Of a stretch of DNA of 64,000 nucleotides, positions 3,073 to 20,991 are shown piece by piece. How positions within the stretch are numbered: position 1 is the first letter of the stretch; each line of letters starts with the position of its first letter. The translations under genes were made by a program, and so were the position numbers. Under the pieces are notes generated by a model. The model saw nothing but the letters and a program-made list of their open reading frames with translations. It searched no databases and was not told the origin of the DNA. The stretch is from an uncultured Candidatus Saccharibacteria bacterium (lineage in GTDB: Bacteria; Patescibacteriota; Saccharimonadia; Saccharimonadales; Saccharimonadaceae). The stretch is from assembly GCA_964570845.1 (NCBI GenBank), contig CAZMZB010000001.1, positions 143,473-207,472 on the forward strand, read 5' to 3'.

Positions 3073-3873
3073 CTACTCTACCAGAGAAATACGGTCTTTA
3101 CAGACAAAAATCATATTTTCTTTTTGCAGGCTTTTTAGTGCCGGCTTAAATCTATTGTCTGCTACGACCATCTGGCGCAGTTCATTTTCACTCAGACTGC
3201 CGTCGATTAAAGCCTTTAAAATCTTGCCTCTCATCTCACGAAGCGAACCTTTTAACGGCGTTTGTTTTTTATAATGTCTGCTCTGGGAAAGCCTGCCACC
3301 ATATTGTTTTTTTAAAAACGTGCCATAATCCATCAATGCATAGTACCATTCGCGTGGGTTTTCTTTATCCATCGTTGCTTCTATTAATTCACTCAACTTA
3401 CCATCGCTCACTGTTTCCGCGCTATCAGCAAAAAAGTGGTGAAAATACACCGTACGAATATTCGTTTCAATGAAAACAACCGGTTGATTAAAAGAATAGG
3501 CTAAAATTGCCCCGGCAGTATTTTTACCAACTCCCGGAAGTGTGATTAGCTCTTCGAGTACTTTTGGAACTTCACCATCAAAGTCTTTTTCAACTTTCTG
3601 CACAGCTCGTAACAAAAACTTGGCTCGGCGATTATAGCCTAGTCCATTCCACAATTTTAAGACATCAGACAGTTTTGCGCTTGCTAAAGATGACATATCA
3701 GGAAACTTCTGGATAAACGCTTCAAATTTTGGCTTCACTCTTTCAACTTGCGTTTGCTGCAACATGATTTCAGACACCAAAACATAATATGGTTCCGTAT
3801 TTTCCCGCCATGGCATATCGCGTTTATTGTGCTGATAATGCTGCCAAACTGTTTCCTGAAACTCTTTCACCAC
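3073..3873 (-). CDS. HhH-GPD DNA glycosylase, MutY/Nth-like, without Fe-S cluster cysteines
   Basis: 266 aa; MutY-like VSEIMLQQTQVERV, HhH motif LPGVGKNTAGAILAYSF. There is no C-x6-C-x2-C-x5-C cluster after the glycosylase core; a short extra C-terminal domain follows. Confidence 0.8.
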   Translation of the reverse strand: MVKEFQETVWQHYQHNKRDMPWRENTEPYYVLVSEIMLQQTQVERVKPKFEAFIQKFPDMSSLASAKLSDVLKLWNGLGYNRRAKFLLRAVQKVEKDFDGEVPKVLEELITLPGVGKNTAGAILAYSFNQPVVFIETNIRTVYFHHFFADSAETVSDGKLSELIEATMDKENPREWYYALMDYGTFLKKQYGGRLSQSRHYKKQTPLKGSLREMRGKILKALIDGSLSENELRQMVVADNRFKPALKSLQKENMIFVCKDRISLVE

Positions 3874-3964: not shown

Positions 3965-4900
3965 TTATTGGATTCTCACGGGAGTCGCTTTCATTGAAAT
4001 TGGCACTTGTTTTATTCGCCATACATCATCTGGGGTGTAAGAGCAAAGATAGTAGGTACCAGCTGCTACTACAGCATTATGCGCCTCGCCAAATAAAGTT
4101 CTTTGTATATACATATAGCTACTACCCGCAGGAATACCTGTTAAGCTATCGATTTGAAAATAGACTTGTTGAGTTCCAGAGCTATTACACATCGCCAATA
4201 CTTCAGTAGACTGACTGGCAGACCCGCTAAATCCACGCCTTACTTGCTCTATACGCACAATGCCGTTAAGAATATATTCTCCTGTTCTTGGAATAACCAT
4301 GCCAGTCGTGTGATTATGCATAATACTCGGCTCCATCACTCCACCACCAGTACCTGTTACCGCTAGCGGACTCCCACCCAAAAACTCCCATTTGTAGGCT
4401 GAGGGGGAAGAAGAGTTGTAGCGCAGGTGCCAGATAGTGCGATTGGCACTATTGGCAACATAATACACCTCCATCCCATCAGTAGGACTGGAGGGCAAGG
4501 CGGTAACCATTGAGGCGGTGGAGGCAAGTTCAACAATGACGGTTCCTTTAGCCACATATTGTTTACCATTAGCCAGAGTGACGGTGCCGGTTACTACAGC
4601 CGAGGGTGCCTGGGAACCGGAGCTACTGGGAGGAGCTACCGTGAAGGTGGAGCTGTAGGTATCGTTTTGTTCTACATACTCAGTACCGGAACTAATGCTG
4701 CCAGTACAGGTGGTTTTGGGTGTTAAGTTACTGGTCCAGTAGATAGTGCCGTTCTTTTTTAGGCAGGCGGTGGCATAGGCAATGCCTGCTTCAACGACCT
4801 GATCGGCAACCCGGTTGTAGGTTTGTCCCTGCAGCGACTGGAAGATAGAGGTACTTGCCACCAGTGTGGAGGTGCCTATGATCATGAGGATGGTGCCCAC
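3965..4900 (-). CDS. PilX-N-like pilus-associated surface protein (5' end interrupted at a G8 tract)
   Basis: The N-terminal hydrophobic helix plus STSIFQSLQGQTYNRVADQVVEAGIAYA resembles the PilX N-terminal domain. The rest is a Ser/Thr/Gly-rich beta-type domain. The track start is a GTG inside the helix. The frame is open upstream to 5050 without a start codon. ATGs at 5034 and 5013 lie in another frame (see finding). Confidence 0.6.
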   Translation of the reverse strand: MGTILMIIGTSTLVASTSIFQSLQGQTYNRVADQVVEAGIAYATACLKKNGTIYWTSNLTPKTTCTGSISSGTEYVEQNDTYSSTFTVAPPSSSGSQAPSAVVTGTVTLANGKQYVAKGTVIVELASTASMVTALPSSPTDGMEVYYVANSANRTIWHLRYNSSSPSAYKWEFLGGSPLAVTGTGGGVMEPSIMHNHTTGMVIPRTGEYILNGIVRIEQVRRGFSGSASQSTEVLAMCNSSGTQQVYFQIDSLTGIPAGSSYMYIQRTLFGEAHNAVVAAGTYYLCSYTPDDVWRIKQVPISMKATPVRIQ

Positions 4901-4962
4901 CAGGATGAGGGTGGGAAGGGCGAAGGCGGAAGAGGTGGGAGTTAGGCTTCTTTTAGTACGTA

Positions 4963-4970
4963 CCCCCCCC
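4963..4970. repeat. C8 (G8 on the coding strand) homopolymer tract
   Basis: Read directly: tacccccccc at 4961-4970, followed by gcgggtgggggg (G6 at 4977-4982). Confidence 0.95.
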
Positions 4971-5065
4971 GCGGGTGGGGGGTGTGAAGAGAGGAAAGCT
5001 GCTTGTGTTTCATAGTTGGGTTTATTATTAGCATGAGGAGGAGGTGGGAGTCAAGGGGTGGATGT

Positions 5066-6382
5066 TTACGGGGTTAAGCGATTGATATCACGCGGAAAGA
5101 GCGTGGCTTCTTTGACGTTTTTGAGACCAATGGTTTTTTCAACCAAGCGGTCGATGCCCATACCGCAACCACCATGTTGCGGAAGACCATATTTAAATGC
5201 CTGAAGATAATATTTATAGCCAGGATGGCTAACATCAAGCCCTGCCTCTTCCATTTGTGCAACGAGCTTTTCATAATGATGCTCGCGAAGCGGCACAGTG
5301 GCAATTTCGAGACCACGAAAGAGAAGGTCGCCCCACAGCACATGATTTTCATCGCTAGGATCAAGCTGATGATAAAACTTCTTGAGACTGGCTGGAAACT
5401 TCGTGGCATAAACCAAATCGCTGCCTAGTTGCTTTCGGGCGTATTCGCAAATCCAGCGCTCTTCATCAGGAATCAAATCCTCTTCCTGAGTCGTATCAGT
5501 TTTATTAGCCTTCGAATACATCTCATGAATTTCTGCCACTGTGAAAGTGGGTACTTCATCGGTTAGTTTTAATTCAGGAGCGTTCAAGCTTTTCAGATCA
5601 CTCTCGTGCTCATCATAAACACGCCGCAACACATCTTTTGTCATATTAGCCACCATATCAAGCACTTCTTGATGGCTCTGCACAAAGCCCATCTCGAGAT
5701 CAAGCATCATAATTTCGCTCATATGCCGTGTTGTGGCGCTTGGTTCTGCCCGAAAAGTTGAACCGATTTCAAACACTCGCTCATACACCCCCACTAACAT
5801 TTGCTTGTAAAGCTGTGGGCTTTGCGCCAAAGTTGCTTCTTTTTCAAAATATTCCAGCTTAAAAACTTCAGCTCCGCCTTCTGTTGCTTCGGCAAGGAGT
5901 TTTGGTGTTTGGATTTCAACAAACTCATTCTTGGTCAAAAACTCTCGCAGATAACGCAATATACTGGCACGAATTTTAAAGACTTTTTGCTCTTGAATAT
6001 TCCTTAGATTTAAGACACGATATTCAAACAATGTATCAAGGTGCTCTGGCTTATGCGAAATTGGCTTGTCAATCTCAATTGGCGGCTCGTCAAGCACCGG
6101 CACTTCAACCGTCAGTTTCACGTCGTGCAGCTCAGCACCGCCAGGCGCACGTTCGTCACTCATAACTTTTCCTTCGACCGTTAAAACCGTACCAATATGT
6201 AGTGCCCGCAGTTTCTCAACCTCAGTCTTATCTTCAACCAATGCCTGAACAATACCGCTTCGATCACGCACCACAATAAAGTTCAGTCCGCCAAGCAGAC
6301 GCTTTTTATGAAGCCAACCTTTAATAATAATCTTCTCTTCGGCTTTTTTTGCGATATCACGAACGAGCGTGCGTTCACTCAT
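5066..6382 (-). CDS. aspS: Aspartyl-tRNA synthetase, archaeal/eukaryal-type (class IIb)
   Basis: OB-fold start GWLHKKRLLGGLNFIVVRDRSGIVQ, motif 2 FRAEPSATTRH, motif 3 GGCGMGIDRLV. The track ORF extends to 6433. ATG at 6382 (MSERTL) follows AGGAG and gives only an 8-nt overlap with the upstream gene. Confidence 0.85.
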   Translation of the reverse strand: MSERTLVRDIAKKAEEKIIIKGWLHKKRLLGGLNFIVVRDRSGIVQALVEDKTEVEKLRALHIGTVLTVEGKVMSDERAPGGAELHDVKLTVEVPVLDEPPIEIDKPISHKPEHLDTLFEYRVLNLRNIQEQKVFKIRASILRYLREFLTKNEFVEIQTPKLLAEATEGGAEVFKLEYFEKEATLAQSPQLYKQMLVGVYERVFEIGSTFRAEPSATTRHMSEIMMLDLEMGFVQSHQEVLDMVANMTKDVLRRVYDEHESDLKSLNAPELKLTDEVPTFTVAEIHEMYSKANKTDTTQEEDLIPDEERWICEYARKQLGSDLVYATKFPASLKKFYHQLDPSDENHVLWGDLLFRGLEIATVPLREHHYEKLVAQMEEAGLDVSHPGYKYYLQAFKYGLPQHGGCGMGIDRLVEKTIGLKNVKEATLFPRDINRLTP

Positions 6383-19958: not shown

Positions 19959-20991
19959 AAAAAGACGACACACTGGTTTTACGCTTGTTGAACTAATGGT
20001 AATCACTCCCATCGTTATGTTAGCGGTAATAGGAACGATGGCGTTACTCGTCAACCTGGTCGCTGAAAACGCCATTACGAATGCGGAAAACTCCATTTCT
20101 GCTGAAGCACAAAATGCACTGAGTGAAGTTCAAAACTCTTTATCAAGCGCAGAGATGTTTTTAGTAACTAACGGACTATCCGACAGTGGAAAATCGGGTA
20201 ACTATGGAAGCGCCAGTGATACCCCCAACTCAAGTCAACCCTTCAGAGGTATGCAAATTATTGGCAAAACATACGACCAAGTTGTAGAAACTAGCGGTAA
20301 AGTAGTACCGGCTTATAAAAACAGTCCTGCCGACTGTAGTACTGCTGCCAGAGTTTCAAATGGCGTACAAAACACTAATACTATCTACTTCGCCAAGCAA
20401 GTCGGCTCAACAGCAAGGGCAGAATTAAAAAGACGTGTGTTAACCACTGAGCCAAGAAATATTTGCGGTACAAGTATTTTCCTCAGAAGCTGTGAAGCTG
20501 GGTATAGTTCTCCGTGCGATAACGATGATACTCTAGCCAGGGATGTCGTAAGCTTTAATATCACCTATTACAACGCCAGCGGCACATCAATCTCTGGTGC
20601 AGCAGCAAACACTGCTGTTGCTGCTAAGGTTGAGTTAATGCTCAAAAAATCTGTAGGTGGAAAAGATATTAGTTACAAGGGGTCTGTCCGATTTAACCTT
20701 TTGAATACACTACCCCCCCCTAGTAGCCCCCCCTGCCCTGGTACCTTTACTGATCAGTCGATTACAGGCAGTACGTCTGGAGGTACAGTGTGGGGAACGG
20801 ATATCTACACAGATGATAGTAACCGTCCAATGGCAGCAGTTCATGCCGGAGTGATCTCCGCAGGACAAACAGCAACTGTTCGGGTGTGCAACTTACCAGG
20901 ACAAAGTAGTTATACGGGCTCTACAAGAAACGGAGTCACCACCAACAGCTATTCATCATGGGGGGGTAGTATCTCATTTACGTTGCCATAG
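19942..20991 (+). CDS. Minor pilin with C-terminal LCCL domain
   Basis: N-terminus KRRHTG/FTLVELMVITPIVML. The C-terminal 90 aa match the LCCL consensus (VWGTDIYTDDSNRPMAAVHAGVISAGQTATV...YTGSTRNGVTTNSYSSWGGSISF). A Pro-rich linker is encoded by C8 and C7 tracts. Confidence 0.85.
   Translation: MLGMSKKRRHTGFTLVELMVITPIVMLAVIGTMALLVNLVAENAITNAENSISAEAQNALSEVQNSLSSAEMFLVTNGLSDSGKSGNYGSASDTPNSSQPFRGMQIIGKTYDQVVETSGKVVPAYKNSPADCSTAARVSNGVQNTNTIYFAKQVGSTARAELKRRVLTTEPRNICGTSIFLRSCEAGYSSPCDNDDTLARDVVSFNITYYNASGTSISGAAANTAVAAKVELMLKKSVGGKDISYKGSVRFNLLNTLPPPSSPPCPGTFTDQSITGSTSGGTVWGTDIYTDDSNRPMAAVHAGVISAGQTATVRVCNLPGQSSYTGSTRNGVTTNSYSSWGGSISFTLP
20713..20733. repeat. C8 - TAGTAG - C7 homopolymer cassette inside the LCCL-pilin gene
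   Basis: Read directly: C8 at 20713-20720, tagtag at 20721-20726, C7 at 20727-20733. In frame it encodes PPPSSPP. Confidence 0.95.
20960..20966. repeat. G7 homopolymer tract near the 3' end of the LCCL-pilin gene
   Basis: Read directly (catgggggggtag); encodes WGG. Confidence 0.95.

Follow-up and report, generated by a model that had tools for sequence, protein, structure and literature searches.

How can a pilus gene be translated when its only upstream start codons lie in another reading frame? This question is raised by a locus in the stretch analysed here, which spans 64,000 nt (the window) of an uncultured Candidatus Saccharibacteria bacterium (GenBank assembly GCA_964570845.1, contig CAZMZB010000001.1, positions 143,473 to 207,472). 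On its minus strand, a run of eight G residues (G8; C8 on the plus strand, 4963-4970) stands between a short start-bearing open reading frame (ORF) and a long ORF coding for a PilX1-type putative pilus tip adhesin. Our analysis indicates that the locus is probably a slipped-strand, translational phase-variable switch on the tip-adhesin gene, captured in the OFF state in the consensus. The source genome (labelled G000) comprises 774 kb in 69 contigs, with a GC content of 0.437 and a completeness of 96.9%.

Reading frames and start codon

All features of the locus are on the minus strand. It begins with a promoter-like element (5024-5054), composed of TTGACT (5054-5049), an 18-nt spacer and the extended -10 sequence TGc-TAATAA(T) (5033-5024), in the order TTGACT-18 nt-TGCTAATAAT-aaacccaact-ATG(5013). 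ATG 5013 sits 10-11 nt 3' of the -10 box, and a second codon, ATG 5034, falls within the box. The two share one frame, MLIINPTMKHKQLSSLHTPHPRGGYVLKEA, which ends at the TAA at 4946-4944. The leader ORF as assembled (4944-5013; ATG at 5013-5011, MKHKQLSSLHTPHPRGGYVLKEA) continues from ATG 5013 with AAA CAC AAG CAG CTT TCC TCT CTT CAC ACC CCC CAC CCG CGG GGG GGG, then TAC GTA CTA AAA GAA GCC and the 0-frame TAA. Its C-rich part (CACACCCCCCACCCGC) contains a C6 run (4977-4982) just 5' of the G tract. The tract itself, an uninterrupted homopolymer in the 5' coding region that is read as CGG GGG GGG in the 0-frame, is reached 17 codons after ATG 5013 and represents the proposed slippage site.

The body ORF (3965-4963) has 332 codons and a stop at 3967-3965, and it lies in the -1 frame relative to ATG 5013. 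No stop interrupts this long frame downstream of the one at 5053-5051, and it reads ..GGVRTKRSLTPTSSAFALPTLILVGTILMIIG... Its first ATG, GTG or TTG is GTG 4900, which corresponds to V22 of ..AFALPTLILV|GTILMIIG and is therefore located in the middle of the hydrophobic helix; it also lacks a Shine-Dalgarno (SD) sequence. The helix is missing altogether from the public gene call (P0002, 298 aa), for which GTG 4861, further downstream still, was taken as the start. The two frames are joined by G9 (or G6). With G9, the ATG-5013 frame continues into VRTKRSLTP... and through the 332-codon body, whereas G7 or G10 leads to a stop three codons on. Read from the frames, a change of one G toggles between a full-length and a truncated product. 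The first-pass annotation had described this layout: a long frame with no start before the mid-helix GTG 4900, two ATGs in a different frame, a G8 tract at 4970-4963 preceded by C6 at 4982-4977, and a sensible full-length protein at G9. Its coordinates were all confirmed from the sequence, and the G9 fusion carries a basic n-region followed by the helix.

The start positions of homologues, a comparison that the same annotation had proposed, point to the ATG-5013 equivalent. N-termini of tract-free homologues read MHKYKQLTRRGFALPTLI / MHKYKKLIQRGFALPTLI; listed by source, they are MHKYKQLTRRGFALPTLII (L001), MHKYKKLIQRGFALPTLII (L079, from the same-genus genome G001) and MHTYKIQTQRAFALPTLVL (a paralogue). 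The leader MKHKQL matches MHKYKQL / MHKYKKL of the tract-free homologues, in which ..RGFALPTLI follows. Because the tract-free relatives begin with MHKYKQL..RGFALPTLI, ATG 5013 is, judged by these alignments, the real and ancestral start. The tract-bearing segment, SSLHTPHPRGGG-VRTKRSLTPTSS, occupies the place of about four residues in the relatives. The conserved boxes suggest the promoter assignment and a near-leaderless mRNA, of which the 5' untranslated region would be very short; the box was not recovered by a promoter consensus scan, and its function is putative.

Two other ways of expressing the body were considered and rejected. An alternative start or reinitiation after the leader stop finds neither a start codon nor an SD sequence. 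A promoter-spacer role for the window tract would have to use TTCACA, 20 nt and TACGTA as the best available boxes, which is a poor match, and no body-frame ATG, GTG or TTG occurs downstream before the middle of the helix.

A leader cassette at five loci

The same arrangement recurs in the source genome as a cassette. It consists of a TG(C/T)TA..A.T box, an ATG 10-11 nt further on, a C-rich leader, CCCRC-G8-TACNTA, and a 0-frame TAA seven codons later. Five loci carry it, namely the window, C3:15828 and C1:354403 (C1 and C3 being contigs), and the contig ends C1:26 and C3:82018. By sequence they form three families, one of which heads a canonical type IV pilin; all five have G8 and need the same correction. 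In an alignment of four cassette sequences (mean column identity 58%), the box and the ATG 10-11 nt downstream were kept in each. Past the tract, the bodies of the three complete copies have 331, 323 and 190 codons without a stop, and the cassette genes are therefore not decayed.

The window copy and the C3 copy are closely related. Positions 5058-4512, which cover the promoter, the leader, the tract and the N-terminal module (N-module), are 100% identical to the C3 copy over 547 nt; the duplicated module as a whole spans 596 nt (4463-5058; second copy at C3:15740-16335). Beyond the identical 547 nt the C-terminal domains diverge, and the C3 copy carries a different jelly-roll variant. Since the flanks differ (aspS at the window, with its 3' end in the unique sequence at 5059-5100, and a RecJ-like gene on C3), the C3 copy (P0003) is a true paralogue. 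The two sequences cease to be identical where the tip domain begins, close to an LPSSPxDGxEVYY motif that is conserved in phage-tail-like proteins. The position of this break suggests that tip domains are exchanged as modules.

The body at C1:354403 encodes a canonical type IV pilin, ..PNPHSPG|FTIVELLASIVVMAILA (PNPHSPG|FTIVELL), with an N_methyl match (PF07963) of 23.6 bits against a cut-off of 21.2 and a class III signal of the G|F-T-x-x-E pattern. Its ATG frame reads MKHKHSLSFYTSYPRGGYIIEQA*, and the gene is off like that of the window, with no body-frame start before the cleavage site. A later start was rejected for this copy, since the prepilin cleavage site would be missing from the product.

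The two remaining cassettes lie at contig ends. C1:1-55 and C3:81996-82050 are the same 55 nt (..CCACCCAC-G8-TACTTACCAGAAAACACCTAACCTT), the leaders upstream of them differ, and the break lies 25 nt after the cassette tract. The shared 55-nt end is not extended by any contig. The assembly broke here at a repeat, and at least two more cassette genes exist whose bodies are unassembled.

Outside the source genome, the searches did not find the cassette. CCCRC-G6+..TACNTA was found among 101 relatives in its own genome only, and a metagenome scan gave 52 matches, none with the cassette architecture. A contig scan of genomes yielded only two homologues, both tract-free, and exact-protein look-ups for P0003 and AspRS gave no match. 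Among 301 family genomes, a G8+ run 5' of a FALPT-type motif was present only in the source genome.

Proposed tract variation and its alternatives

In the proposed mechanism, the promoter-like box would be followed within ~11 nt by ATG 5013, and 17 codons of C-rich leader would run into G8, with the helix and the jelly-roll body one base out of register. At G8 the gene would be OFF: ribosomes would stop seven codons past the tract and leave only a 23-residue peptide. One G gained by slipped-strand mispairing at replication would give G9 and turn the gene ON, joining MKHKQLSSLHTPHPRGGG to VRTKRSLTP..AFALPTLILVG... in a full pre-protein with the junction ..HPRGGGVR..; G7 or G10 would be OFF again. 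The cassette would head at least five genes in this way (two of the PilX1 type with different tip domains, one pilin, and two cut at contig ends), and pilus components could be toggled individually, independently of each other. If RNA polymerase or ribosomes slip on this run as well, some leaky rescue may be added. We infer that the tract length varies at the window locus and that G9 cells make the full protein.

The distribution of homopolymers in the genome was compared with an independent and identically distributed (i.i.d.) base model. G/C runs of 5-7 are depleted to 0.5-0.7 of the expectation, and there are 12 runs of at least eight where the model expects ~6. These 12 comprise the five leader tracts, all out of frame, one intergenic tract in a promoter and six tracts in frame. 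In an enrichment test with 18 pilin/PilX gene regions (2.3% of the genome; the two contig-end cassettes were left out), 10 of the 27 runs of at least seven fell inside these regions (binomial P = 2.6e-10), as did 5 of the 12 runs of at least eight (P = 4.6e-6). C7/G7 runs were found in three other pilins of the source genome.

MutS (MutS_V, PF00488) and MutL (DNA_mis_repair, PF01119) were not detected in this 96.9%-complete genome, while the controls were positive in 11 of 14 genomes. With no MutS or MutL, slips would go unrepaired. A MutY-like glycosylase is encoded at window 3073-3873.

Poly-G tracts also occur at the pilin genes of related genomes. Runs of G8-G14 located 20-140 nt 5' of canonical pilin GFTxxE codons were present in 12 of the 301 family genomes, including the source genome, and in 8 of 95 genera. 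Ten genomes (G019, G059, G109, G176, G180, G205, G210, G306, G316 and G321; loci L083-L110) show a promoter-type layout: a TTGACA-like -35 box, 4-9 nt, G(n), TATACT/TACACT/TGnTATAAT, 6-8 nt and the ATG. The spacers are 17-23 nt long and follow the tract length, and the pilin messages are apparently leaderless, judging from the box positions. Lengths vary among paralogous loci within a genome; G019, for example, has G8, G9, G9, G11 and G12. The source genome contains one such tract beside the coding-leader type: G8 at C1:365967-365974 (L097) fills the 17-nt spacer of TTGTAA-N17-TACACT 5' of a pilin at C1:366073. The pilin behind this tract (MKQRNQIK|GFTIIEVV) has an AAGGAG SD sequence. In other genera of the family, G9-G10 runs lie between TTGAC(A/T)-like and TACACT/TATACT/TACAAT boxes 5' of non-pilin paralogous genes (G036: L012, L014, L017, L019, L021, L023; G009: L015).

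The eleventh genome, G142 (L084; C2:35968-36036), has a coding-leader tract, in which ATG MSIKKITRTLYPSPTKW-G9 is out of frame with ..LNRLIHTQRSSKVY|GFTIVELL. It bears a weak resemblance to the G000 cassette and is likewise OFF as assembled, with the opposite correction needed (one G fewer). This reversal is consistent with a general switch of tract length, but not with a single fixed signal for recoding.

The first-pass annotation had left phase variation and a homopolymer miscall side by side. The five-locus cassette, the enrichment of tracts at pilus genes, the missing MutS/MutL and the poly-G tracts of the family favor the former, and the in-frame control tracts described below disfavor the latter. 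Several observations weigh against a length switch. All five copies, from three diverged families, have exactly G8 and the same OFF frame, whereas free fluctuation might be expected to leave different lengths at different loci. Among the tracts with known high-frequency switching, G8 would rank with the shortest. None of the five cassette loci was found in the ON state, the cassette occurs in no other genome or metagenome contig scanned, and no orthologous locus was found in the collections.

The uniform G8 would fit RNA-level recoding, the main rival but an unlikely explanation, in which the DNA stays at G8 and slipping RNA polymerase adds a G to a fixed minority of transcripts, or a minority of ribosomes slips by -1 on G_GGG_GGG. 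The cassette genes would then be expressed constitutively, each at a low, fixed level, as would be appropriate for minor pilins and tip adhesins needed in few copies. All five copies in the three families keep G8 in the same phase despite many differences in the flanks, the short 0-frame reaches its stop at an identical place in all of them, and the 0-frame CGG GGG GGG is a formally perfect X_XXY_YYZ heptamer with the body ORF in the -1 frame. Recoding was also entertained first for a pilus case in Bifidobacterium breve (PMC5009743), but replication slippage was demonstrated for that analogue (PMC9187656). The folds of three cassettes gave no stem-loop or pseudoknot 5-9 nt downstream of the tract and nothing conserved there. 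The only local fold was an upstream C-run/G-run hairpin. The first-pass annotation had suggested that such a C6...G8 pairing could form at the translation start; it is indeed predicted, but it is no more stable than in shuffled sequences (z = -0.99, -0.42 and +0.64 for the three cassettes), and this part of the annotation was not supported. The all-G heptamer G_GG.G_GG.U, moreover, had the lowest efficiency of the motifs measured in E. coli, at 0.018% without a stimulator (PMC4066793). The coding-leader G9 of G142 would require the opposite shift, other poly-G/C tracts lie in promoters or mid-gene, where only a change in DNA length makes sense, and without mismatch repair (MMR), changes in the length of a G8 run are bound to occur in the DNA as well.

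A narrower form of recoding holds that G8 is a fixed signal on a portable promoter-ATG-leader cassette, controlling the stoichiometry of low-copy tip proteins, with slippage allowing a small, set share of each message to yield full-length protein. It would explain why three diverged families all hold G8 in the same phase; we consider this form unlikely. The shift is identical in the five in-genome copies and opposite in G142, the sole other coding-leader case.

We regard it as very unlikely that the true tract is G9 and that the genes are intact, the consensus having under-called a heterogeneous or difficult G run. Consensus indels occur most often in homopolymers, every complete copy would encode a perfect protein with G9, and the dominant tract length of B. 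breve in culture differed from the reference (PMC9187656). The genome provides its own controls, however: intact ORFs contain six other G8/C8/C9 runs and three A9/T9 runs, all of them in frame (894-1488 nt for the ORFs with G8/C8/C9). These nine tracts make a systematic under-call unlikely, and a systematic homopolymer miscall was rejected on their account; a consensus problem confined to the cassette loci of a heterogeneous population may still exist. An error would have to strike all five cassette tracts and none of the rest. The identical 55 nt at the contig ends suggest that the assembly was built from short reads with a de Bruijn graph, an approach that does not tend to compress homopolymers, and the independent assembly of G142 also has an out-of-frame leader tract. 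Death of the genes by a one-base loss that never switches back, with the leader ORF as a remnant, is hardly credible: no ON copy was observed and pseudogenes do occur in reduced symbiont genomes, but the bodies are open for 190-331 codons and encode conserved domains, including a C-terminal domain that is modelled with confidence, the 'lesion' would sit at the identical place in three diverged families, and the 547 identical nt shared by two paralogues imply a recent conversion or duplication of a maintained module.

Three of the in-frame G8/C9 control tracts are located in genes for a secreted proline-rich protein (C1:120265-120272), a UDP-glucose dehydrogenase-like protein (G8 at C1:243170-243177) and a large multi-pass membrane protein (C9 at C1:251409-251417). 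They may be further surface-structure contingency loci that are currently ON. Another tract inside an ORF is G8 at C2:65981. A 353-codon minor pilin (KRRHTG|FTLVELM) carries C8-TAGTAG-C7 in frame (window 20713-20733, C1:164185-164205; ..LPPPSSPPCPG..) and, in addition, an in-frame G7 (window 20960-20966, C1:164432-164438). A paralogue at C1:55217 has G7 at the equivalent SPPCPG junction. We regard these minor-pilin tracts as candidates for switches in mid-gene, through which the product would lose its C-terminal domain.

Known switches and the gene product

The closest analogue of the window locus is found in the pilus genes bbr_0113 and bbr_1889 of B. breve UCC2003, in which a G tract lies between the start/signal ORF and the subunit ORF (Penno et al. 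2022, PMC9187656). The reference genome has the two loci in the OFF state, and maximum-depth sequencing demonstrated replication slippage (PMC9187656). The two systems share a short start-bearing upstream ORF, a long pilus body, a downstream 'start' with neither an SD sequence nor a signal peptide, and a pilus or adhesion protein as the product, OFF in the reference. They differ in that B. breve, an actinobacterium with MMR, uses G10-G11 tracts in sortase (LPXTG) pili with a Sec signal. The present case involves G8, type IV pilus proteins and a portable five-locus cassette in an episymbiont of the candidate phyla radiation (CPR) without MutS/MutL, and is known from sequence only.

Other systems resemble the locus in part. 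Neisseria pilC reportedly has a poly-G tract in the region coding for its signal peptide (Jonsson et al. 1991). As proposed for the locus in the window, a G run in the N-terminal leader of a type IV pilus tip-associated adhesin switches the product ON or OFF by frameshift. The Neisseria protein, PilC/PilY1, is a large non-pilin with a Sec signal, whereas the proteins here are pilin-like (PilX1-type) or true pilins; in the pilin copy, the tract precedes the G|FTIVE prepilin site and would be removed on processing. Variation of the Neisseria tract is documented, while ours is known from an assembly. The promoter-spacer switches of Neisseria porA and opc are comparable to the G8-G14 tracts of the family and to C1:365967, which are placed in the -35/-10 spacer. 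The window tract is unlike them: it is 3' of the ATG and coding, without a usable -35/-10 pair, and no start follows it. Campylobacter jejuni likewise has a small genome without functional MutS/MutL and many G8-G11 tracts in surface-structure genes, with states of the G8/G9 type. It belongs to another lineage, its tracts are mostly in glycosylation and capsule genes with no shared leader cassette, and their variation has been shown experimentally. In the literature searched, there was no report of simple-sequence phase variation in the phylum of Saccharibacteria.

Saccharibacteria attach to host bacteria, and type IV pili mediate host binding (PMC11623550, PMC9894109). If the switch is real, it would provide heritable, reversible control of each gene and a clonal population with differing pilus tips, plausibly as a form of bet-hedging against changes in host strain, phage receptor or exposure to immunity. 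The coding-leader cassette would represent another mode, acting at translation, beside the promoter-type poly-G tracts. Gene callers truncate the cassette genes (the call at GTG 4861 lacks the helix), and pilus repertoires are therefore under-annotated in such genomes.

The gene itself appears to encode a Saccharibacteria PilX1-type putative pilus tip adhesin, composed of a pilin-like N-module and, according to the structure model, a lectin-like jelly-roll. The N-module contains the FALPTLI helix, ..Q.....A...AG.A.A..CL and a conserved Cys pair. The hydrophobic pilin-like helix AFALPTLILVGTILMIIGTSTLVA (4856-4927; body-ORF residues 13-36) is preceded by the basic VRTKRSL, and its N-terminus (..SSAFALPTLILVGTILMIIG..) is of the FALPTL type, without the canonical G|FTxxE prepilin site. 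The module is 45-56% identical to those of three in-genome paralogues and homologues elsewhere; in these three paralogues and in homologues, it is followed by RCC1 repeats. No Pfam, NCBIfam or PHROGs family matched the body ORF. At E <= 10, neither the read-through N-terminus nor four relatives matched PilX_N (PF14341). The first-pass description of the protein as PilX-N-like thus does not hold in the sense of the Pfam family, but it stands in the sense of PilX1/PilX2 of strain TM7x.

The C-terminal domain (3968-4516; LPSSPxDGxEVYY...WHLRY...KWEFLGG...PVR) is all-beta in the AlphaFold2 (AF2) model and is a putative receptor- or glycan-binding tip domain. The model has an overall pLDDT of 60.6; within the C-terminal domain, the mean over ten-residue blocks is ~90 or above at residues ~151-200 and lower and mixed elsewhere. 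A Foldseek search with this domain returned jelly-rolls, including the N-terminal lectin domain of BC2L-C (TMt 0.55-0.62), and also picornavirus VP1 and the lambda gpJ tip. The motif LPSSPxDGxEVYY..WHLRY..KWEFLGG..PVRVG also occurs in proteins with N-terminal PHROG tail-fibre or minor-tail matches.

For TM7x PilX1 (a beta-jelly-roll protein) and PilX2 (an RCC1 propeller), no PilD signal peptide is predicted (PMC11623550). The same paper proposes that both act at the pilus tip and finds that efficient host binding requires PilX2 (PMC11623550). The words 'homopolymer', 'frameshift' and 'slipped' do not occur in that paper. Like the window protein, PilX1 and PilX2 of Nanosynbacter lyticus TM7x are minor-pilin-like, with large C-terminal accessory domains and no PilD signal; the window protein is likened to PilX1 by the published description, not by sequence. 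The source genome has both TM7x types: the window gene and the C3 copy are of the jelly-roll type, and the three paralogues are of the RCC1 type. In one PilX2-type gene (start C1:309345, minus strand), which has a C7 run in its repeat region, the RCC1-repeat part is broken by a scaffold gap (a run of N) at C1 ~308.2-308.5 kb.

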